From Escherichia phage PLYYY01, in sequence record MZ911962.1: 57,025 nt of DNA, one strand, 5' to 3'. Each line of letters opens with the position of its first letter. Positions within the stretch are counted from its first letter, which is position 1. Both the position numbers and the translations under genes were made by a program. The notes under the pieces were generated by a model, which had not been told where the DNA came from, searched no databases, and saw only the letters and a program-made list of their open reading frames with translations. This document shows, piece by piece, positions 1 through 10,044 of the stretch.

Positions 1-879
1 GTGAGCAACACAACTCCAGCAAGCGCGAAGTTTACCCCGTTTCGTGTAACGAGTTCCGGTCTGGATATTAACATTGCGACGCTGGAGTCTGAAGAACTGC
101 GTGATGACGCAGAAACCGCAGACTTCCGTCTTGGCGCTCGAAGCGTTGAAGGTACGGTAACAGGTGAAATGTCCTTCGGTACGTTTGACGACCTCATTGC
201 GGCAGCACTGCGCGGTGAATGGCAGGACAACGTCCTTAAAGGTGGTATTGTTCGCCAGTCATTTACTTTTGTAGACTATAACGCAGATCTGCCATCAGGT
301 AAATACACAATCTATCGCGGTTGTGAAGTTAACAGCATGACTTTCTCATTGTCTGCTGAAAACATGACCACAGTAGAGTTCGGCATTGTTGGTCGCTCGA
401 TGGAAATTGCGGAATCGCTCCCATCTGGTGCAACTATCAAAGACCGTACAACTACTTCACCGATGGACGGCTTCTCCGGTCGCTTGCTGGAAGGCGGTCA
501 GGAAATTAGCGTTATCACGGAAATCGGTCTTACCGTTGAAAACGATATCGCTCCGCGCTTCGTTGTCGGCTCGAAGTTCTCCATTGAACCGTCTGCTGGT
601 CGCCGTGCTGTAACTGGTACAGCTAACGTTTACTTCCTGGATAACAAACTGCGTATGAAGTATCTGGATGAAGTGGAAACTTCAATCAAGTTTGATCTGA
701 TCGACCCAAGCAATCCGGAACAAAAATACACTGTGGAAATCCCTCGCGTGAAATTCACTGAAGCTCCGCGTCCTATTGACGGTGAAGGGGATATCATGCT
801 TAATATGGGCTACCGCGGATTGCTGGACCCAACAACCGCAAGTTCCATCAAAATTACCCGCGTTTTAGCGGCAGCATAA
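1..879 (+). CDS. major tail (tube) protein
   Basis: 292-aa ORF starting with GTG at window position 1 (N-terminus could be cut by the window edge). Sits directly upstream of the chaperone and tape-measure genes in the conserved siphovirus order. No motif-level proof. Confidence 0.6.
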   Translation: MSNTTPASAKFTPFRVTSSGLDINIATLESEELRDDAETADFRLGARSVEGTVTGEMSFGTFDDLIAAALRGEWQDNVLKGGIVRQSFTFVDYNADLPSGKYTIYRGCEVNSMTFSLSAENMTTVEFGIVGRSMEIAESLPSGATIKDRTTTSPMDGFSGRLLEGGQEISVITEIGLTVENDIAPRFVVGSKFSIEPSAGRRAVTGTANVYFLDNKLRMKYLDEVETSIKFDLIDPSNPEQKYTVEIPRVKFTEAPRPIDGEGDIMLNMGYRGLLDPTTASSIKITRVLAAA

Positions 880-1296: not shown

Positions 1297-1694
1297 AAGC
1301 GCGCAGACAGTTAATTGATAAGAAGATCCTCCAATGGGAACTAAATAGTAAAGTCCCCGGCGGGGGATCTTCTTTATTATCGCAACTGCAAAAGGTTGAG
1401 GAACAGTCTGGTAAGACGCCACCTAAGCTTAAAGAATATCGAGAAAAGGAAATACCGATTTGCTTCGAATATCTATCTACTCTATTTGATGATATTTACA
1501 CTGGAGGAGATTTTAGTTATACAGAATTGCACAGCTATCAAGTGACAATGGGCTTACATCTTCAACCGTACGAATGCGAAATACTGCGGCAGCTATGGCT
1601 TGAAAAGCGCGTGTCAGAAGCTGAACAAAATGCTAAACTCATGGAAAGTCAAATGCAAAATCAAAATAAAGGTAGAAGAAAAAGGAGAAGATAA
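889..1694 (+). CDS. tail assembly chaperone frameshift product (lambda GT-like), predicted -1 frameshift at 1287-1293
   Basis: The -1 frame is open for about 135 codons from 1287 to its TAA at 1692-1694 and has no start codon until codon 88. Heptamer T_TTT_TTC at 1287-1293 sits just before the G stop. The extension stop overlaps the tape-measure ATG (TAATG). Inverted repeat 1321-1329/1365-1373 lies downstream. Confidence 0.55.
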
Positions 1695-4600
1695 TGGCCG
1701 AAACCGCTTCGCTAGTAATCAGAGTTGACGCGAGAGGGATTAGTACCGCGGACTCTATGTTGCGGAACTTAGCGCGTACAGGTGACACAGCGGAGCGGTC
1801 TGCTCAACGTGTTACCTCCAGCTATAAAACATTGTCTAACACATCTAACGAACTTGCAACTGTCACAAGTCGTTTAGATGCTGCAATTGTAGGAATGATT
1901 AGCGTTGACACTATTAGCCGTGTTATATCGCTATCAGACTCCTGGACCATCCTTACCAACAAACTTGAACTAGCTCGTATGGGTAATGAAACCGTTGCGG
2001 ATTCCCAGCAACGTGTATTTGATATTGCCCAGCGTTCCCGTACCAGTTTAGAAGCAACTGCAACTCTGTACTCCCGTCTCCAGCGTGCAATGAAGAATAC
2101 TGGTATGACTGGTATGGAGCTTGGACGTATCACTGAAACAATTAACAAAGCGATGATTGTTTCCGGTGCAACGTCACATGAAGCAAGCGCTGCATTGATT
2201 CAGTTTTCGCAAGCGATGGCATCCGGTGTTCTGCGTGGGGATGAATTCCGCTCTGTTGCAGAACAAGCTCCGCGCTTAACTCAAATCATGTCCGATTCTT
2301 TAGGTGTTACCATTGGACAATTGCGTGAACTAGCCTACAGCGGCAAGTTAACCGCCGATGTGGTTATCAAATCGTTGTCTGGTGCTGCGGATACAATTGA
2401 TAAAGAATTTAGCCGCACTATGCCAACGTTCAACCAGCAATGGACAGTTGCAACAAACAACCTGACTAAGTTTATGGGCGAATCCCAAAAGACTCAAGGT
2501 GCTGTTGCTGCATTGGGACAGACGTTTGTTGCATTATCCGAAAACTTAGGAACGGTTGTAACGGTTGGTTCAGCTTTAGCCACAGTAATTACCGCCCGTA
2601 TCATCACGGCAATGCTGGCCAAGACTAAAGCGTCTATAGCTGCTGCAAAAGCATCTCAGATGGAAGCTGCACAGACTGCGGCAACTACTGCGGTTATGCA
2701 AAGTTCTATTGGCGTTACCGCACAGAAAGCGGCTGCGGATCGTGCCGCTTCGCTTGCAGCGTTACAGGTTGCTCGCGGGTCATTAGCGGTTGCTAAGGGC
2801 ACGGCAGCGGAAGCAGGTGCTCGTCTTGCGCTTATTAATGCTACCCGTGCCCATTCTGCGGCAATTATGGCGGACGTACAGGCGCGGCAGGCGCTCAATG
2901 CTGCTCTTAATGCAACTGTACCAGCCGCAAGCCGGGCAGCTACAGCAATGAGCGTGCTGCGCGGTGCTATGGGGTTAATTGGTGGTCCTGTTGGTGTAGC
3001 AATGCTGGCAGCGGGTGCAATTTACTCCTATAAAGCGTCGCTGGAAGCTGGTCGTGCGGAAAACAATCAGTTTGCAGATAGTGTTGATAGTGTACGCGAA
3101 AAACTGATGCAAATGACGGAAGCTCAGCTGGCAGCTAACGCTGTCAAAGCTAGAGCAATCCTTCCGGAACTTGAAGAGCAAATGAAGCGCGAGCAAACCG
3201 CTCTTAAATCTGCAACGGAAACGCAGAAGTTCTATGAAGCACAATTGAAGCGTCGAGCTGAATCCGGTCGAGATACTGCTAGTGCGGAAAAGAACTTACA
3301 GATTGCTACGGATAACGTCAAGCTAGCTGCTGAACGCGCGGAAGACGCACAACGTCGATATAACAATGTGCTTGAAATGACAAGCCCCGCTATCGAGAAG
3401 ATAATCCCGTTAGCTCGTCAGCTTGCTGCTGATATGAAGGCTGTTCTTAACATCAAATCCGGTCCGCTTATTGACGAGAAAGTTCTTGATCGTTTTAAAA
3501 CTCAGCTAGGTGACGTTAACCGTGAGATTGACGTTAACGCTGTTAAGGGTGCTGGTAATGCTCGTCAATCTGCAATCCTTAGAGGTCTGTATCAAACACT
3601 AGGTAAAGATGCAGACACCTACGGAAGTCTGATTCGCAAAGTAGCTATGGGTCAGGACGTTAGCTCAGAGGCAACAAGCGAGTCCGCTAAAGAGCTTGTT
3701 AAATATGCTCAAGATTTAGCCCAAGCTCTTGGCAAAAACTACGATCTTGAAGAAGCAGAGAGAAACCGGACTAAAGCTACAAAAGACGCTATTAAGGCAG
3801 ATCAACAAAACGCTAAGGTTATTGACGATTTACGAAACAAGCTTAACGAAGTAACCACAGGGGTTAAGGAAAACGCCAAAGCGAAAGCGCAAGCGGTAGC
3901 ACTTAATAAGCTCAATGCGTCTGCAACGGCTGCGGAAAAAGCGGAAGTTGTTAGACTTGCTGCTGCAATCTACGATGCAGAAGAAGCTCAAAAGAAACTG
4001 GACGAGCGTAAGAAGAATCGTAAGTTTGCTCAGGGTCTGTTAGATGAAGGTATGACAGACTATGAAAAAATCGCGTACGAGCAAAATACAAAGATTGCAG
4101 AGCTTAATGCAAAACAACGAGCCGATGATCTAGCTTACTATCAGCTTTACGAAGATGCTAAAACACAAGTCCTGAAGAAAGCAAGTATGGAAAGGGAAAA
4201 CCTGGATAAAGTTCTTATGAACAGGATGATATCCTTTTCTCAAGAATCGTTGGGTGTTATATTGTCAGGTCTGGAAGAAGGTGTTAGTAAACAGAACTTT
4301 ATTTATAAAGCAATGTTTGCAGCACAGAAAGCAATGCAAATTCCCTCAATTCTTGCTAACACGGAAACAGCGGCATCTGCGGCGCTTGCGTGGGGTACAC
4401 AGCAAGGCGGTGCTACAATGGGCGCAGCTATGGCTGGTATAGTAAAAGCTATGGGTTATGCGTCGGCTGCTACTGTGGGTGGCTTAGCAATTGCCGGCAT
4501 GGCACACGACGGTATTGATAATGTTCCGCGCGAAGGTACATGGTTATTGGATAAAGGTGAACGTGTACTTAATGCTCCGTCTAATGACAAGTTAAACCGC

Positions 4601-4810
4601 TTCCTGGATAGCCAGGCTTCACAACAAGGTGGCGTGAATATGTCCGGTGGTGTTAGCATTGTTCAGTATATCACGGTGCAAGGAAATGGCGATGCTGCAC
4701 TCACGCAAGCCATGCAGCAAGCGGCTCGTGATGGCGCGGAGCAGGGATATAATAAAGTTCTTACTGACTTTGCATCCCGAGGAACAATTCGTAGAACTGC
4801 AATGGGGTAA
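1694..4810 (+). CDS. tail tape measure protein
   Basis: 1038-aa ORF, Ala-rich with long coiled-coil-like central region and Gly-rich hydrophobic C-terminal segment; position after the G/GT chaperone. Confidence 0.85.
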   Translation: MAETASLVIRVDARGISTADSMLRNLARTGDTAERSAQRVTSSYKTLSNTSNELATVTSRLDAAIVGMISVDTISRVISLSDSWTILTNKLELARMGNETVADSQQRVFDIAQRSRTSLEATATLYSRLQRAMKNTGMTGMELGRITETINKAMIVSGATSHEASAALIQFSQAMASGVLRGDEFRSVAEQAPRLTQIMSDSLGVTIGQLRELAYSGKLTADVVIKSLSGAADTIDKEFSRTMPTFNQQWTVATNNLTKFMGESQKTQGAVAALGQTFVALSENLGTVVTVGSALATVITARIITAMLAKTKASIAAAKASQMEAAQTAATTAVMQSSIGVTAQKAAADRAASLAALQVARGSLAVAKGTAAEAGARLALINATRAHSAAIMADVQARQALNAALNATVPAASRAATAMSVLRGAMGLIGGPVGVAMLAAGAIYSYKASLEAGRAENNQFADSVDSVREKLMQMTEAQLAANAVKARAILPELEEQMKREQTALKSATETQKFYEAQLKRRAESGRDTASAEKNLQIATDNVKLAAERAEDAQRRYNNVLEMTSPAIEKIIPLARQLAADMKAVLNIKSGPLIDEKVLDRFKTQLGDVNREIDVNAVKGAGNARQSAILRGLYQTLGKDADTYGSLIRKVAMGQDVSSEATSESAKELVKYAQDLAQALGKNYDLEEAERNRTKATKDAIKADQQNAKVIDDLRNKLNEVTTGVKENAKAKAQAVALNKLNASATAAEKAEVVRLAAAIYDAEEAQKKLDERKKNRKFAQGLLDEGMTDYEKIAYEQNTKIAELNAKQRADDLAYYQLYEDAKTQVLKKASMERENLDKVLMNRMISFSQESLGVILSGLEEGVSKQNFIYKAMFAAQKAMQIPSILANTETAASAALAWGTQQGGATMGAAMAGIVKAMGYASAATVGGLAIAGMAHDGIDNVPREGTWLLDKGERVLNAPSNDKLNRFLDSQASQQGGVNMSGGVSIVQYITVQGNGDAALTQAMQQAARDGAEQGYNKVLTDFASRGTIRRTAMG

Positions 4811-4813
4811 TAT

Positions 4814-5398
4814 ATGCTCACTTGGCCCGAAGAGCTTAGACCATCTGAAATGGAATGGTATCTAGTTTCAAACGCTGTAGAATTTACAAGCCCCTTCAAT
4901 GGGGCTTCCCAAACTGTGTCCTATCCTGGATCGCGATGGGAAGCTACGCTAACCTTTAGCAATTTAAATGACTGGCAATCCAGAAAGCTTGAATCGACGT
5001 TAGCTAAACTTGATGGTAAAGCTGGTCGAATCATGCTTCAGGATTTTGGTCGATGGGGGCGTGCGCCAATCGGAGCACCTGTGGTTAATGGTGCAAACAA
5101 TACAGGGACAACTTTATCTACCAAAGGGTGGAGTCCAAACCGCAAGGTTTTATGGGAAGGGGATTACATCGCTGTAAACAATGAATTGAAATTAATAACA
5201 GAAGATGCTTGGAGCGATGCTTCCGGTAACGTAATCCTAAATATTGCACCTATGCTGAGGAGTATTCCTCCAAACGGTGCTAAGATTGAAACTCAGAAGC
5301 CACAAGGAGCTTTCCGGTTAGCAGAAAATACTAACGGAGTTAAACGTCAACCTGCTTTTAATAACTCCTTTACTTTAAAATTTTCGGAGGCATTCTAA
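4814..5398 (+). CDS. minor tail protein (lambda M-like / distal tail)
   Basis: 194-aa ORF immediately after the tape measure; call by gene order only. Confidence 0.45.
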   Translation: MLTWPEELRPSEMEWYLVSNAVEFTSPFNGASQTVSYPGSRWEATLTFSNLNDWQSRKLESTLAKLDGKAGRIMLQDFGRWGRAPIGAPVVNGANNTGTTLSTKGWSPNRKVLWEGDYIAVNNELKLITEDAWSDASGNVILNIAPMLRSIPPNGAKIETQKPQGAFRLAENTNGVKRQPAFNNSFTLKFSEAF

Positions 5399-5982
5399 TG
5401 CTATTCAGTCCATTCAGCGATGACCTTCTTAGTGCAATGGAACAACCGAACGTTGCATTGGTGCTGGCTGCGGAAATAGATTTCCCGTCCGGTGTAACAA
5501 GGGTTCATACAGGAACAGGAACTGTTATTATTAACGGTCAGACTTTTCTTGGAGTAGGCACACTTGGGGATGTTGGTTCAGTTACCGAAGAGAACAGCAC
5601 AAGCTCAAGTACAATGTCTATGGTGCTTAGCGGCCTAGATATGAGTCTTGTAGGTGAAACTTTAAACGAAGAAGTTATCGGATGTAATGTTGTCTGCTAT
5701 CTTGCAGTAATGAACGATCAAGGCGTTGTTACTGGCGCCAACGTATTATTTGAAGGGTTTATTACAGATACATCCTTACAAGCAGGTCAACAAAATGCAT
5801 TGAGTTATGTCATTGCCAACGTGTTTGAGCGTTGGTCGCAAGGTTTACCGGATCGCTATACAGATGAAAGTCAACAGCGTTTGTATTCAGGTGATCGCTT
5901 TTTTAGATATGTCGCACAAATGGCCGAACGTTCAATCTTTTGGGGGAGTAAAAAAGATGCGCCAGGATTCACCTATGAGTAA
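5398..5982 (+). CDS. minor tail protein (lambda L-like)
   Basis: 194-aa ORF whose start overlaps the previous stop (ATG at 5398); call by position in tail module. Confidence 0.45.
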   Translation: MLFSPFSDDLLSAMEQPNVALVLAAEIDFPSGVTRVHTGTGTVIINGQTFLGVGTLGDVGSVTEENSTSSSTMSMVLSGLDMSLVGETLNEEVIGCNVVCYLAVMNDQGVVTGANVLFEGFITDTSLQAGQQNALSYVIANVFERWSQGLPDRYTDESQQRLYSGDRFFRYVAQMAERSIFWGSKKDAPGFTYE

Positions 5983-6391
5983 ATTACCAGGCTGGCAGAC
6001 ACGTTTATTAACCACAGTAAAGGAGTTGTCATCGACTCCTTTCTCTTGGGGAGAAAACGATTGTTGTACGTTTGCTGCTAAATGTGTTGATGCGCAATAT
6101 GGTACTAATATCTATGAACAGATAGCTGGTAAATATACCACCGAACTTGGAAGCAGACGGTTTTCAATTGAAAAGGTTGGAACAGCTTACCTTCCAACAT
6201 TGCTGGATGCTTACCTAAGCGAGCGGGTTGATAAAAATTTTGCGCAACGCGGCGATGTGGTTACATTTGAGGGAGCATTGGGCATAACTGCTGGCATATT
6301 ATGGACTGGATATGTATGGGCTATGGGTCCGAACGGTGTGGAAACTTTCCCGCTTAATAAGATCAAAATTACGGATATTTGGAGGGTCTAA
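5957..6391 (+). CDS. tail assembly protein K-like, NlpC/P60-type cysteine peptidase fold
   Basis: ATG at 5957 preceded by GGGGGAG. Product begins MRQDSPMSKLPGW and contains the NDCC Cys motif typical of NlpC/P60-like tail proteins. The ORF-track start at 5807 would overlap the upstream gene. Confidence 0.5.
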   Translation: MRQDSPMSKLPGWQTRLLTTVKELSSTPFSWGENDCCTFAAKCVDAQYGTNIYEQIAGKYTTELGSRRFSIEKVGTAYLPTLLDAYLSERVDKNFAQRGDVVTFEGALGITAGILWTGYVWAMGPNGVETFPLNKIKITDIWRV

Positions 6392-9042
6392 TGCCACCAG
6401 CAATAATTGGAGCAGCAATAGCTTTAGGCGCATCCGCTGCCGCTGCGGCGGGCTGGATTGCTACGGGTGTAGCTTTGGCCATTGGTATGGCTGCGACTGC
6501 GGCAGGTGCTCTTTTAACTAAGACACCCAATATGAACTTTAATGCATATAAAGGCCAGCAAGAACGTAAGCAGGTTCTACGGGCAGCCGCAGCTCCTCGT
6601 ACCGTAGTATATGGGACAACCGTTGCTTCCGGTGTTATGGTGTTTGCGGAGGAACAGCCTGGAGAACAGGACGAAGATGAACTGCTGCATATGGCGTTAG
6701 TTATTGCGGGACATCCTTTGGATGGGATTGGTGATATTTGGCTTGGGGACGATCCTGTTCAAACTTTTGAAGATTATGTCACTTGGGAGTTTCATAACAA
6801 CCGTCAGACAGTAGACCCTTTCATGAAAAAGAATTGTCCTTCGTGGAAGGATGATATGATTGGAAAAGGGATTGCGTGGCTTCGTATTAGTTTTAAATTT
6901 AACGCAGAAAAATTCCCTTCAGGTTTGCCGAACGTCAAAATGCTAAAACGAGGTCGACGTATATATGACCCACGTTCCGGTCAAACTGTATTTAGTGATA
7001 ATGCTGCTTTAGTAATACTCGATTACTTCCGCACTTACCTGAAACGTAAAGACGAAAATATTAACTGGGACCAGTTTAAAGAAGCAGCTAATATCTGCGA
7101 TGAATACGTTGCTAATGCTGATGGTTCTACCGAGAAACGCTATAGGATTAATGGTGAGTTTGAAGTAGACGAAGCCCCTTCTAAGATCCTGGATGCCATG
7201 CTACAAGCTTGCGGTGGCGAACTGACATATGTAGCGGGTAAACATGGTTTGCTTGTGGGCGCATATTACGGTCCGGCTACAATGACGCTTGATGAAAGTT
7301 GCATTGCTGGGGATATTAAAATTGTTCCGGAGACTTCTTACAAGGAACGTACAAACACCATTACAGGGACATTTATCGACCCGAAGCAAAACTATGTTGA
7401 AGCTGACTTCCCTCCAGTTGTGGTTAAGGAATGGGTGGAAAAGGATGGCGGAGAAATAACTCAGGACATGGATTTCCGTTTTGTTGCCAGCGAGTACCAA
7501 GCGCAACGTTTAGCTAATATTATTTTACGTCGTAAACGTGTTGGGCGCACAATTGAAATTCCTTGCAACATGAAGGGTTATAAGTTCCGTCCAGGAATGT
7601 ATGTAAAAGTTACTATTAGTCAGATTGGCATGAAGAATGTCGAAATGCGTGTTACCAAATGGTCCTTTAATCCTAAAGGTGGAGTTACCCTTACTTTACG
7701 TCAAGACTTCCTGGAGATGTGGGACGATGCTATTGGTAAACCTATGGAGCGTCCGGATCTTGTAGATTTGCCAAGTGGTGGTGTTGCTCAACCTCAAAAC
7801 CTTCAGTACCAAATATTACAGATCAGCGATGTTGTGCAGGGGGTTTTATCCTGGACCAATATGGGGCAGGTTGCGTATAACCGCGTAGCCGTGCGACAGG
7901 GGGGTACAACTATTTGGACTGCACAAGTCCCTGGCCAAAGTGTTCGCGTTACTGGGTTGCTGCGGGGCGCGTATACAGCACATGTTCAAGCGGTATCCTA
8001 TAGCGGCGCGGTGTCACCAGAAGCCTATCTGGAATTTAATATCCAGGCGCCACCTCCGCCAACGTCTGTTGAAGTCCAACAGGGTTACTTTGCAATAAGC
8101 TTAATTCCTAAGTCAGCAGACATTTCAAACGTTAGTACACAATATGACTTCTGGACTTCTGGTGAAACAAGACTTTCTTCTGCATCTACGGATGTTGTAG
8201 AACGCGATGCAACTCGTAAAGGTATGGGTACAACATGGACTTCCGAAGGGTTGAAGAATGACCACACTTATTATTGGTACGTCCGCACTATCAACGCATT
8301 TGGATCGTCTGCATTTGTAGAAGTTGCTGCATTATGTTTCACAACAGCTACAGAACTAATGCCACAGATTGATGCAGAACTCAAAAAGACGGAAACATTC
8401 AAAGAGCTTACTGCTGAAATTACAGGCGTTAAAGATGGTGTTACCCAACTCAGTCAAACTGTAGTAGAAACTGAACAACGTTTAAGTCAAAGCATTAGCA
8501 GCGTCCAGGAAAGCCTGAACGATGTTAGCGCGACTGTACAGGAGACAAGTAAAGCAGTTGTTGATCTGGAAGGTAACGTTAACGCTCAATGGGGCGCTAA
8601 GGTACAAGTTGACAGTAAAGGGCAAAAATACGTCGCTGGTATCCAGTTAGGTATGGAGGGCTCCGGTGGTGCTGTTCAATCTTACTTCATGGTAAGCGCA
8701 AACAACTTTGCTGTTTATAACCCAACAAACAGTGTAGCAGAATTAGCCTTTGCCGTTAAGAACGGCCAAGTATTCATGAAAGCTGCATTTATTGAAAACG
8801 GTACTATTGACAGCGCTAAGATATCAAACCAAATCCAATCTACAAACTATGCTAGCGGTAGTGCTGGTTGGATGATCAATAAAAATGGTACTGCGCAGTT
8901 CAATAACGTTACTATCCGCGGGACAGTATACGCTAATGCAGGTCAATTTGGCTTTAATGGTAATGGGGGTATAACAATCAATAGTAACGGGATTACCGTT
9001 CCGCTATCCGGTGGAGGTAAGGTTGTAGTCGGTAGATGGTAA
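6379..9042 (+). CDS. tail tip / host specificity protein (lambda J-like) with N-terminal I-like hydrophobic segment
   Basis: 887-aa ORF. The C-terminal half resembles lambda J as I recall it (fibronectin-III-like repeats, YYWYVRTINAFGSSAFVEV, KYVAGIQLGMEG). The first ~60 residues are Gly/Ala-rich and hydrophobic like the C-terminus of lambda tail protein I. Confidence 0.75.
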   Translation: MEGLMPPAIIGAAIALGASAAAAAGWIATGVALAIGMAATAAGALLTKTPNMNFNAYKGQQERKQVLRAAAAPRTVVYGTTVASGVMVFAEEQPGEQDEDELLHMALVIAGHPLDGIGDIWLGDDPVQTFEDYVTWEFHNNRQTVDPFMKKNCPSWKDDMIGKGIAWLRISFKFNAEKFPSGLPNVKMLKRGRRIYDPRSGQTVFSDNAALVILDYFRTYLKRKDENINWDQFKEAANICDEYVANADGSTEKRYRINGEFEVDEAPSKILDAMLQACGGELTYVAGKHGLLVGAYYGPATMTLDESCIAGDIKIVPETSYKERTNTITGTFIDPKQNYVEADFPPVVVKEWVEKDGGEITQDMDFRFVASEYQAQRLANIILRRKRVGRTIEIPCNMKGYKFRPGMYVKVTISQIGMKNVEMRVTKWSFNPKGGVTLTLRQDFLEMWDDAIGKPMERPDLVDLPSGGVAQPQNLQYQILQISDVVQGVLSWTNMGQVAYNRVAVRQGGTTIWTAQVPGQSVRVTGLLRGAYTAHVQAVSYSGAVSPEAYLEFNIQAPPPPTSVEVQQGYFAISLIPKSADISNVSTQYDFWTSGETRLSSASTDVVERDATRKGMGTTWTSEGLKNDHTYYWYVRTINAFGSSAFVEVAALCFTTATELMPQIDAELKKTETFKELTAEITGVKDGVTQLSQTVVETEQRLSQSISSVQESLNDVSATVQETSKAVVDLEGNVNAQWGAKVQVDSKGQKYVAGIQLGMEGSGGAVQSYFMVSANNFAVYNPTNSVAELAFAVKNGQVFMKAAFIENGTIDSAKISNQIQSTNYASGSAGWMINKNGTAQFNNVTIRGTVYANAGQFGFNGNGGITINSNGITVPLSGGGKVVVGRW

Positions 9043-9045
9043 CAA

Positions 9046-9065
9046 AAAGGGGCGGAAGCCCCTTT
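9046..9065. terminator. bidirectional intrinsic terminator between convergent genes
   Basis: Perfect hairpin AAAGGGGC-GGAA-GCCCCTTT with A-run on one side and T-run on the other, between the J-like stop (9042) and the minus-strand ORF end (9064). Confidence 0.6.
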
Positions 9066-10044
9066 AATACATATTGGGCAATGCAATGATTGGAGTTGGG
9101 GTAACAATGTTTCTTTCTGGCGGTCTTAGGGACGGTGAATAATAGTTTCCTATCACCTTGTTCCTTTCAGCCCTGACCTTATTCCCATACATGCGGATAC
9201 CGTTATATCTTACATGATCGTAACCACCATTGTATACGTTCTTCATTCCATAATATGCAAGTTGAATTAACCTGTTTCCAATATCCTGATCGCTTGTTGT
9301 TAAAGTTAAAGTTTTATCAAATAAGAATGGTTTCTTTACTGTGGAGAATGTAACTTGCCCAGCGGTATTTGTCATCGTAATACCGTCACCTGCTACTGGT
9401 GGCGTATTATTAAATATTACTAGCTCCATCGTAACACTGGCAGCAACATCATCCCTACCAGTGTAGGAGATGTCCCGAACTATAATGTTAGTGCCATCAA
9501 AGCCAACAGAAACGTTAGCAGAGTTCCACCTTGCAAAAGGAATACCGGATACAGGCAATTTTAAGCTACCATTAACCGTAACGCTTTTAGCGTACTGACA
9601 GGTCATTAATTTTGCATTATTTGAAATCGCTGTGAAGTTAGTAGAGTTGGACACAAATAAGCCAGTGTTGTATGTAGCGGCAGGTAATACTTCCATGATA
9701 GACCCCGCCCATTGTGGAAGTTTTCCGGTGTACCCAAAAGGGTTCCCGCCTTTCAGAATAACACCGGAGTTACCATTCCTGGAAATAGAAGAGATATAGA
9801 ATGGTGAAGGAACGACAAGACCCTGATCGTATACTTCAAATATTTCAACGGGCTTTGTAGGTATTACAAAAACTTGGGAACCTGAAGTAAGGGTTGTATT
9901 AATCGTTAACGTTTGATCGGACTGACAACGCTGATTAAAGTTGGCACAAAAAGATAAAGCCCGTAGACCGGACGTTATTTGCATTGCAGGTCTTCCGTCA
10001 TTGTAGTTTATGTAAATACCTTCAGGCATTATAGACTCCAACAA
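9064..10044 (-). CDS. hypothetical Ser/Thr/Asn/Gly-rich protein on the opposite strand inside the tail module (possible fiber or receptor-binding accessory)
   Basis: 326-aa minus-strand ORF bounded by the hairpin at 9046-9065 and a divergent intergenic region at 10045-10154. No signal peptide seen. Function not inferable. Confidence 0.4.
   Translation of the reverse strand: MLESIMPEGIYINYNDGRPAMQITSGLRALSFCANFNQRCQSDQTLTINTTLTSGSQVFVIPTKPVEIFEVYDQGLVVPSPFYISSISRNGNSGVILKGGNPFGYTGKLPQWAGSIMEVLPAATYNTGLFVSNSTNFTAISNNAKLMTCQYAKSVTVNGSLKLPVSGIPFARWNSANVSVGFDGTNIIVRDISYTGRDDVAASVTMELVIFNNTPPVAGDGITMTNTAGQVTFSTVKKPFLFDKTLTLTTSDQDIGNRLIQLAYYGMKNVYNGGYDHVRYNGIRMYGNKVRAERNKVIGNYYSPSLRPPERNIVTPTPIIALPNMY

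Follow-up and report, generated by a model that had tools for sequence, protein, structure and literature searches.

Results

The tail-tip gene cluster of PLYYY01

The window analysed here is the complete 57,025-nucleotide stretch of Escherichia phage PLYYY01 (MZ911962.1), which belongs with the Seuratvirus-like (Queuovirinae) siphophages of E. coli. The genes for its tail tip lie in the order tape measure protein (TMP), distal tail protein (Dit), hub-like protein, DUF6950 peptidase-like protein and J-like protein (Table 1). The hub-like protein, which contains 2 cysteines only, is 43% identical to its counterpart in PY54 and 38% identical to that in FV3, and the DUF6950 protein, whose start was set by homology to Seurat gene 18, shows 40% and 44% identity to the respective counterparts. 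Lambda K combines NLPC_P60 and Prok-JAB domains, whereas Pfam detected no JAB/MPN domain on the K-like DUF6950 protein. A Ub-like I gene was not found across the window with tblastn or a gpI-family HMM, and neither a Ub-like I domain nor a JAB domain was detected in the tail module.

Table 1. Coordinates of tail genes and of N-terminal features of the J-like protein (positions in the window)
Feature	Position	Strand	Size	Basis or remark
Tape measure protein	1694..4810	+	1038 aa	Pfam TMP_3, E=5.1e-59
Distal tail protein (Dit-like)	4814..5398	+	194 aa	phrog_1302, E=2.5e-71
Hub-like tail protein	5398..5982	+	194 aa	phrog_2048, E=6.3e-90
DUF6950 gene, K-like (NlpC/P60-related)	5975..6391	+	138 aa	Pfam DUF6950, E=7.3e-40
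Shine-Dalgarno GGAGG	6381..6385	+		five bases before ATG 6391, read from the sequence
J-like tail-tip gene (baseplate hub / central fibre)	6391..9042	+	883 aa	stop codon included
Uncharged Gly/Ala-rich hydrophobic segment	6391..6519	+	residues 1-43	composition, hydropathy
Polar linker	6520..6585	+	residues 44-65	conserved Q-ERKQVLR motif
Beta-strand core (AAAPRTVVYGTTVASGVMVFAEEQPGEQDED)	6586..6678	+	residues 66-96	matches last gpI strands (GN.LPVLYGEMRVGSRVVSQE)
Start of J proper (ELLHMALVIAGHPLDGIGDIWLGDDPVQT)	6679..6765	+	residues 97-125	counterpart of lambda J start proper (LLSVIDAISEGPIEGPVDGLKSVLLNSTPV); residue-level match made by eye

The J-like protein follows the pattern of the lambda J/baseplate hub family, in which hub domains precede FN3/Ig domains and a tail-tip fibre domain. 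It matched the Pfam models Phage-tail_3, Ig_J, Ig_J_second and Phage_Tail_Tip as well as phrog_31, labelled 'central tail fiber J' (E=3.9e-188), and lambda J is among its sequence matches in the PDB. A Foldseek search with the AlphaFold model returned lambda gpJ as the top PDB match (8iyk_F, E=4.6e-35); the other best fold matches were T5/DT57C pb3, the T1 tip and the RcGTA structure 6tba.

The first-pass annotation had given this protein 887 residues. That length belongs to an ORF extended to TTG 6379 and is mechanical only; as read from the sequence, the most likely start of the gene is ATG 6391, which yields 883 residues. This ATG shares bases with the stop codon of the upstream gene (TAATG) and is preceded by a Shine-Dalgarno sequence. 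The Seurat annotation has the same MPPAIIG start with a marked RBS, and proteins in the database with 98% identity also have 883 residues.

A hydrophobic segment, a polar linker and a strand core

The peptide originally quoted from the J-like N-terminus was found to be exact: PPAIIGAAIALGASAAAAAGWIATGVALAIGMAATAAGALL, followed by TPNMNFNAYKGQQ...VVYGTTVASG. Its description as Gly/Ala-rich and hydrophobic was borne out, but the length of about 60 residues was an overestimate, as the segment comprises 43 residues (nt 6391-6519). Within it there is not a single D, E, K, R, H, N or Q; Gly and Ala together make up 57% of residues, versus 19% across the J-like protein; and the Kyte-Doolittle 19-residue mean (KD19) reaches 1.6-1.85, the sole such run in the protein. 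A chance low-complexity run was considered and rejected, as only 1 in 20,000 shuffles of the protein produced a run of at least 43 such residues (median longest run, 16). AlphaFold predicts two helices here, at residues ~3-17 and ~28-43, but with low confidence; residues 1-55 have a pLDDT of about 30, which makes the helix hairpin a tentative feature.

The linker that follows carries the sequence QQERKQVLR at nt 6556-6582, and in an alignment of 51 diverse N-termini Q61 and R64 are kept in at least 90%. In the adjoining strand core G75 and G81 are invariant among the same N-termini. AlphaFold predicts strands at residues 71-74, 76-79 and 82-88, with 10-residue block means of pLDDT of 92, 85 and 79 over residues 71-100, and residues 70-96 sit inside the folded body of the protein (pLDDT about 79-92).

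The segment is native to J-like proteins of this group

A phmmer search with residues 1-100 against 1.84 billion representatives gave 72 matches at E<=1e-3, counted as clusters at 50% identity. All 72 cover target positions 1 to ~100, and most of the targets are J-like proteins of 700-3300 aa. A downstream motif could be recognised in 147 J-like relatives, and in all 147 of these the N-terminal segment is strongly hydrophobic (maximum KD19, 1.44-2.54). The same fused architecture was seen in PY54, a Klebsiella phage, Vibrio phages and rV5-like phages. In a tblastn search of residues 1-100 against phages, residues 1-45 were masked as low complexity and relatives were located through residues 46-100.

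The segment is thus a native part of the J-like proteins in this group, because all 72 relatives, and R4C/GTA-type megatrons as well, carry the module at their N-termini. The first-pass annotation had suggested a gene fusion or a loss of the N-terminal domain of I. The Ub-like domain is indeed absent, but a module found in 72 of 72 relatives gives no support to a noteworthy fusion event in PLYYY01.

A natural contrast comes from the rV5-like myophage FV3, whose version of the four-gene cassette is 32-54% identical and in whose relatives the J-like gene is annotated as a lateral fibre. The N-terminus of FV3 J is equally long but hydrophilic, with a maximum KD19 of 0.31 versus 1.85 in PLYYY01 and 11 charged residues versus 1.

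Profile-level relationship with the C-terminal half of gpI

In lambda, residues 101-223 of gpI, the tail assembly or 'insertion' protein I (TAPI), form a trimer in the lumen that has predicted TM helices H1 and H2 and a plug at residues 159-175; its strands augment the gpJ sheets, and density for H1/H2 is gone after opening (PMC11101478, PMC10721106, PMC12617516). The proposal that the PLYYY01 segment corresponds to this half of gpI is supported by profile mapping. On phrog_31, residues 1-96 of the J-like protein aligned to positions 174-283 (E=2.9e-8), lambda I 54-209 to positions 132-276 (E=3.5e-8) and lambda I 102-209 to positions 176-276 (E=9.1e-5), while lambda J 1-1117 occupied positions 263-1199. 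The order in phrog_31 is therefore collinear, with the C-terminal half of I followed by J; the module and gpI share positions 174-276, and residue 1 of lambda J falls on position 263, ahead of the point at which residues 1-96 end.

Profile-profile comparison gave the same correspondence. An hhalign alignment of the J-like N-terminal profile (J-N) with a diverse gpI C-terminal profile (gpI-C) scored 32.7 (P=6.2e-5, probability 65%), compared with 17.1 for the reversed control and a maximum of 13.4 over 30 column shuffles. A search for related loci with a lambda I alignment had yielded near-identical lambda prophage loci only, and the diversity of gpI-C comes from 11 individual phage loci. The aligned core is short, at 24-34 columns. 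In the global hhalign alignment the linker (residues 44-65) appears to be the positional equivalent of the gpI plug.

The link to gpI shows at profile level only, and other searches were negative. Pairwise BLASTP of residues 1-120 with lambda I gave no meaningful alignment, and the gpI-family HMM gave no score on the J-like ORF. PF06805 (Lambda_tail_I) did not match the J-like N-terminus at E<=10 and scored 1.1e-28 on lambda I itself; this model is unable to test the C-terminal half of gpI because it covers the Ub-like part alone, a beta-grasp N-domain that ends in a conserved Gly. The remaining Pfam hits to the N-terminus at E<=10 were noise (OATP, QCR10). An HMMER profile built from the 51 N-termini matched no PDB chain at E<=10 and, with filters off, gave no significant score on lambda I or the R4C megatron. 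When the segments were split, residues 44-100 reached only E=0.094 on phrog_31 and lambda I 153-223 alone gave no match; given these weak halves, some of the PHROG signal may come from shared hydrophobic composition.

The resemblance extends to layout. Both the module and the C-terminal half of gpI (~100-223) have a Gly/Ala-rich, uncharged hydrophobic stretch of ~45-55 aa, a polar linker containing K and P, and a P..(V)YG....G strand with acidic residues at its end, and both are encoded after a K-like peptidase and ahead of the body of J. They differ in that the module is covalently part of J in PLYYY01, whereas gpI is the product of a separate gene; in that PLYYY01 has no Ub-like N-domain (PF06805) and its K-like neighbour no detected JAB; and in the length of the hydrophobic stretch, 43 aa versus about 55 in lambda.

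Comparison with megatrons and other tail tips

The megatron proteins of RcGTA and roseophage R4C carry an iris/penetration domain at residues 1-46 (PMC7296036, PMC10276861). Like the PLYYY01 protein, RcGTA g15 and the R4C megatron are large hub/fibre proteins with a hydrophobic, Gly/Ala-rich N-terminal helix-loop-helix of ~45 residues, in PLYYY01 a low-pLDDT prediction, and a collinear YG-strand motif follows the hydrophobic segment. The N-terminal hydrophobic pattern is the same in R4C and 19 related megatrons. R4C also has the PLYYY01 gene order of Dit, hub, cell-wall peptidase and megatron (genes 013-016), with the TMP ahead, and the AlphaFold model of the J-like protein matches RcGTA chain 6tba_8A with E=1.1e-13. 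By hhalign, gpI-C matched the megatron N-terminal profile (megatron-N) with P=2.5e-6 and a probability of 89%, while J-N matched it weakly (P=1.7e-3, 15%), the indirect connection via gpI-C being the stronger; all three pairwise comparisons of J-N, gpI-C and megatron-N align the same motif. There are also differences. Sequence similarity between megatrons and J-N is weak, with no HMMER match; the PLYYY01 hub-like protein, at 194 aa and 2 Cys, lacks the 4-Cys iron-sulfur domain of the RcGTA type; and the C-terminal part of the PLYYY01 protein is a lambda-J-type fibre (Ig_J, Phage_Tail_Tip) rather than a megatron fibre-binding domain.

Three further systems offer partial parallels. In the Aeromonas siphophage Avs-1, the N-terminus of gp23 forms a gpI-like tripod (PMC13612043), an in-cis arrangement like that proposed for PLYYY01, compared here by its published description only. 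TAPI-TAPJ fusions, in which I-type sequence is joined to J, were noted in some prophages in 2006 by Iyer, Burroughs and Aravind (PMC1779556); those were described with the whole of TAPI including its Ub-like domain, whereas PLYYY01 has the Gly-rich segment and TAPI-C only. T5 pb3 forms a trimeric plug that shuts the lumen of the tip, with a proposed outer membrane interaction (PMC10721106), and matches the AlphaFold model at the fold level (E=5.5e-29); however, the plug of pb3 is inserted within the HDII-insertion domain instead of forming an N-terminal segment. We found no experiment on, or structure of, any Queuovirinae tail tip in the literature.

Discussion

The sequence and profile comparisons make it probable (roughly 0.8) that the first ~96 residues of the J-like protein constitute a native, conserved N-terminal module that corresponds, in cis, to the C-terminal half of gpI (TAPI-C) and to the RcGTA/R4C iris/penetration N-terminus. 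Its parts would be a hydrophobic two-helix segment (residues 1-43), the polar ERKQVLR linker (44-65) and strands within the hub-domain fold (66-96). We propose that residues 1-43 are the equivalent of lambda gpI helices H1/H2 and of the megatron iris/penetration domain.

An alternative is that the resemblance to gpI is one of analogy, the N-terminus being a convergent membrane-active or low-complexity leader that shares no ancestry with gpI. The negative BLASTP and HMMER-level tests and the weak split-segment PHROG matches are in keeping with this, as is the fact that profile scores can be raised by Gly/Ala-rich hydrophobic stretches. The hhalign signal, however, comes from the strand region, which is not hydrophobic, and is much stronger than in the reversed and shuffled controls, three independent family pairs share the motif in the same order, and the module keeps its place after the K-like gene and ahead of the J body and maps collinearly on phrog_31; we therefore consider analogy unlikely. 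A scenario in which an I-like gene was joined to J and the Ub-like domain lost as a recent, lineage-specific event in PLYYY01 or its genus is rather more improbable still. I is separate in lambda-like and T1-like phages, full TAPI-TAPJ fusions occur in some prophages (PMC1779556), and phrog_31 has ~170 profile positions upstream, to part of which lambda I 54-101 maps. Against these points, the architecture is spread over 72 clusters at 50% identity, including PY54, Klebsiella, Vibrio and rV5-like phages, and is shared with GTA/R4C-type megatrons, which makes it old and widespread; a split on the lambda side is just as possible.

The first-pass annotation had also raised an unannotated short I-like gene followed by a J gene that starts downstream, for example at Met48 or Met101. 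In-frame ATG codons do occur at residues 33, 48, 83 and 101, and a few of the phmmer matches are short (106-255 aa), but the frame is open throughout 6391-9042 as a single ORF, no Shine-Dalgarno sequence precedes Met33, Met48 or the other internal ATGs, and the J-like proteins of four translated relatives (Seurat, PY54, K21lambda1 and FV3) are continuous. The short entries that were inspected have out-of-frame-looking tails or come from short contigs; a word-index search with a 140-aa N-terminal query returned 5 short entries only (123-238 aa), two of them labelled partial. With residues 70-96 folding into the body of the protein at high pLDDT, a two-gene arrangement is very improbable. We regard as equally hard to credit a role as a Sec-type signal peptide or inner-membrane anchor during assembly. 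It would account for an N-terminal hydrophobic stretch, and a few homologues (P0042, P0051, P0071) have an extra signal-like extension; yet there is no positively charged n-region, the 43-residue h-region is far too long, no cleavage-site pattern is evident, and nothing points to periplasmic assembly of the tail module. In relatives with solved structures, the equivalent helices lie in the lumen of the tail (PMC11101478, PMC7296036).

For the module as an in-cis counterpart of gpI-C, we infer from solved relatives a lumenal location, a role as a plug and insertion into the membrane. Following the structures of lambda, RcGTA, R4C and Avs-1, three copies would point into the lumen of the tail tip in the virion and shut the channel, as the helix 1 trimer of the megatron iris does. 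The closed plug would support the C-terminus of the tape measure, a contact suggested by the lambda structures (PMC10721106, PMC12617516). Upon receptor binding the tip would open and the two hydrophobic helices would be released into the outer membrane, where they might help to form or line an exit for the tape measure and DNA.

A further suggestion, which we offer tentatively and consider doubtful, is that the fused form could be the ancestral, minimal plug of siphophage tips, with lambda gpI (Ub-like domain added) and a JAB-bearing K arising by later fission, to which a delivery or processing device was added. If so, hydrophobicity of the hairpin would be selected only where the module stands at the DNA exit, and the co-opted rV5-like myophage cassette, in which length and strand core are kept and hydrophobicity is lost, would be evidence of this. 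Seurat-like phages would then offer the simplest genetic system for asking whether a gpI-type hairpin forms an outer-membrane channel.

The N-terminal segment of PLYYY01 is genuine but ordinary: it is most probably a widely conserved, built-in form of the lambda gpI plug/insertion piece, of a kind known from I-J fusions since 2006, and it does not overturn current understanding. Its presence on J would explain the absence of gene I from such genomes. For annotation, a gpI-C/iris-penetration module can be marked over the first ~96 residues in J-like proteins of the Seuratvirus/Nonagvirus type, and likewise in many J-like proteins of PY54-like, Klebsiella and Vibrio phages. The module supports a view of lambda gpL, gpI and gpJ as parts of a single hub protein, which other phages encode in fewer polypeptides. 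The fused version, free of Ub-like and JAB domains, would provide a cleaner system in which to study entry of the hairpin into the outer membrane, with the hydrophilic rV5-type module as a natural control.

Results

The mechanical ORF of the J-like gene, which encodes the predicted tail-tip (hub/central fibre) protein, opens at TTG 6379, and its true start is almost certainly ATG 6391. This ATG shares bases with the upstream gene's stop codon (TAATG) and is preceded by GGAGG at 6381-6385; the Seurat gene is annotated from an identical MPPAIIG start, with an RBS, and database proteins 98% identical to the J-like protein are 883 aa long. Residues 1-43 completely lack D, E, K, R, H, N and Q, are 57% Gly+Ala (vs. 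19% overall) and form the sole run in the protein with Kyte-Doolittle 19-residue means (KD19) of 1.6-1.85. When the protein was shuffled 20,000 times, a run of this length arose only once. The hydrophobic Gly/Ala-rich N terminus described in the first-pass annotation is real, and the peptide quoted there is found in the window translation, but these composition, hydropathy and shuffling results limit it to 43 residues rather than ~60. A polar linker (44-65) and a strand core (66-96) complete what we term the module.

Residues 1-100 were used as a phmmer query against 1.84 billion cluster representatives (E<=1e-3). All 72 proteins recovered, most of them 700-3300 aa long, matched at target positions 1 to ~100. 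Their common pattern consists of an uncharged stretch of ~40-55 residues, often MPP-initiated, a K/P boundary, Q-ERKQVLR, and the motif aP..vYG.t..SG.L.FAEE, in which G75 and G81 are invariant. Upstream of the motif, maximum KD19 was at least 1.44 in 147 of 147 J-like relatives in which the motif was recognisable, and tblastn hits to the motif fell within genes annotated as J or tail fibre in Queuovirinae, rV5-like myophages, and Pantoea, Serratia, Yersinia PY54, Klebsiella and Vibrio phages. Distant homologues P0042, P0051 and P0071 carry an additional signal-peptide-like extension of 20-30 residues ahead of the hydrophobic segment, which may reflect miscalled starts or a real variant.

These data bear on how an I-like segment came to lie on J. 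One proposal, a short unannotated I-like gene followed by a downstream J start, was rejected: the frame is open, with no stop codon supporting a split gene and no Shine-Dalgarno sequence ahead of internal Met codons, and the ORF is likewise unbroken in Seurat, PY54, K21lambda1 and FV3, beginning ~47 codons ahead of the motif. The "proteins" P0021, P0037, P0052 and P0005, which match the module but span only 116-150 aa, have out-of-frame-looking tails and resemble J genes that are frameshifted or truncated, not free-standing I-like genes. The other proposal, a special fusion event in this phage, is not supported because the segment is native to J-like proteins of this group and the architecture is widespread; fusion in these phages and fission in the lambda lineage are equally possible.

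Lambda tail protein I (gpI, or TAPI) has a Ub-like domain (PF06805) at 14-97 and a Gly/Ala-rich hydrophobic stretch at ~100-155, and its C-terminal part ends ...GNVLPVLYGEMRVGSRVVSQEISTADE.... Direct BLASTP of the J-like N terminus against lambda I, a HMMER profile of J-type N termini searched against the PDB and lambda I, and a gpI-family HMM searched against all window ORFs were negative. In PHROG comparisons, window residues 1-96 mapped to phrog_31 positions 174-283 (E=2.9e-8), lambda I 54-209 to 132-276 (E=3.5e-8), lambda I 102-209 to 176-276 (E=9.1e-5) and lambda J 1-1117 to 263-1199, which makes the window protein collinear with the C-terminal half of I, followed by J. Split segments matched weakly (window 44-100, E=0.094), and shared composition may have partly raised the PHROG scores. 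hhalign of 51 J-type N termini against a diverse gpI C-terminal (gpI-C) alignment, in which 12 of the 16 sequences came from diverse phages (loci L001 and L087-L097) and 4 were close relatives of lambda I, gave P=6.2e-5 (probability 65%, score 32.7), with a reversed template scoring 17.1 and 30 column-shuffled templates <=13.4. The match fell on the strand core (AP..VYG...SG..FAEE with G.PVP.LYGE..VGS.VIS). The I-like assignment made on first reading is therefore supported at the profile level, and from these sequence comparisons we estimate the probability of homology to gpI-C at roughly 85-90%. One annotated "tail tip assembly protein I", from Yersinia phage P400 (L087:684-1112), is only 142 aa and starts within the Ub-like domain; tblastn at this locus matched lambda I residues 1-216, and the true start probably lies upstream of the annotated one.

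Gene order in roseophage R4C is identical to that in the window (tape measure, Dit, hub ["gene transfer agent"], cell-wall peptidase, megatron). The R4C megatron, a large hub/fibre protein, and 19 related sequences open with a hydrophobic stretch rich in Gly and Ala, after which comes ...EGAPIPRVYGRARLAGQVIWATKLEE. Megatron N termini aligned by hhalign with gpI-C (P=2.5e-6, probability 89%) and with the window J-like family (P=1.7e-3). Both alignments lie on the same motif, and the three groups therefore form a consistent triangle.

An AlphaFold model of the J-like protein, built from a 50-sequence alignment (mean pLDDT 78), matched lambda gpJ (8iyk_F, E=4.6e-35), DT57C pb3 (E=1.1e-29), T5 pb3 (E=5.5e-29), the T1 tail tip (E=8.3e-25), the JBD30 baseplate (E=2.1e-19), the Chi tail tip (E=1.2e-17) and RcGTA (6tba, E=1.1e-13) in Foldseek searches of the PDB. 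Confident strands at 71-74, 76-79 and 82-88 lie within the globular body (10-residue block pLDDT means over 71-100: 92, 85 and 79), so the I-like strands are integral to the fold. Helices 3-17 and 28-43 have pLDDT ~30; the hairpin is not resolved in this monomer model, as would be expected of a lumenal trimer element.

This E. coli siphophage is Seuratvirus-like (Queuovirinae) and, over bases 4800-9100, ~84% identical to RCIP0359, CSP1, slur01, Seurat and CAjan. Since its hub-like protein is only 194 aa with 2 cysteines, it cannot hold the 4-Cys iron-sulfur cluster of lambda gpL and the RcGTA/R4C hub proteins. The DUF6950 gene overlaps the hub gene by 8 nt; a mechanical ORF at 5807-6391 (194 aa) is this gene called too long. 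Two uncharged Gly/Ala-rich hydrophobic stretches in the tape measure protein recall segments of lambda gpH and of the tape measure of R4C that have been discussed as TM-like.

Tail-tip genes and segments (window positions)
Feature	Position	Strand	Basis or remark
Tape measure protein	1694-4810		Pfam TMP_3
Tape measure residues 424-446	2963-3031		KD19 1.8
Tape measure residues 919-937	4448-4504		KD19 1.37; near C terminus
Distal tail protein	4814-5398		phrog_1302
Hub-like protein	5398-5982		phrog_2048
DUF6950 K-like protein, 138 aa	5975-6391		MSKLPGWQ...; ATG start by homology with Seurat gene 18
J-like protein	6391-9042	+	Phage-tail_3, Ig_J, Ig_J_second, Phage_Tail_Tip; phrog_31 E=3.9e-188
DUF6453 protein, 326 aa	9064-10044	-	E=8.9e-123; directly downstream of J

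Seurat carries a small lipoprotein moron at the position of the DUF6453 gene and its J-like protein is 1040 aa (vs. 883 aa here), while the last ~190 residues of the window protein (8460-9042) match "J-like tail tip protein gp24" (PDB 23gd_D, E=5.9e-35). Together these differences suggest that the receptor-binding end of the locus has been exchanged.

The rV5-like myophage FV3 (NC_019517; L005:1792-7132; proteins P0303-P0315) carries the same cassette: Dit (32% identity to the window protein), hub (38%), DUF6950 (44%) and J-like (54%), the last annotated as lateral tail fibre in relatives. Its J-like N terminus keeps the length and strand core yet is hydrophilic, as are the first ~47 residues of the J-like protein in rV5-like myophages, with a maximum KD19 of 0.31 (vs. 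1.85 in the window protein) and 11 charged residues among its first 50 (vs. 1). The gene upstream of the rV5-like cassette is annotated as tail fibre, not tape measure. This contrast, drawn from annotation and inference, would fit a need for hydrophobicity only in modules positioned at the DNA exit.

Discussion

In lambda, gpI residues ~101-223 form a trimer within the tip lumen, and the tape measure's C-terminal coiled coil rests on this trimer; plug residues 159-175 block the channel and gpI strands augment gpJ sheets. LamB binding loosens the plug, the predicted TM helices H1/H2 are lost from density, and their insertion into the outer membrane has been proposed (PMC11101478, PMC10721106, PMC12617516). 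In RcGTA and R4C, megatron residues 1-46 are an iris shutting the channel, with a proposed role in outer-membrane penetration (PMC7296036, PMC10276861). On the precedent of these solved relatives, the J-like N terminus most likely works in the same way, with plug and hairpin encoded in cis.

TAPI has been described as a Ub-like domain joined by a Gly-rich linker to TAPI-C, with cleavage of the Ub-like domain by the JAB domain of K predicted; TAPI-J fusions were noted in some prophages, and a table note records that NlpC/P60 partners of the fused versions almost always lack JAB (Iyer et al., PMC1779556). Neither tblastn nor the gpI-family HMM found a Ub-like I domain in the 57 kb window, Pfam found none in the J-like N terminus, and the K-like protein is DUF6950 only, the NlpC/P60-related part without JAB, in contrast to lambda K (Prok-JAB + NLPC_P60). 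This arrangement fits the published pattern. The feature is of a known kind, a gpI-C/iris-penetration/plug module, and I-J fusions have already been described; the N terminus of J in this phage is, in effect, a pre-processed I-C carried on J.
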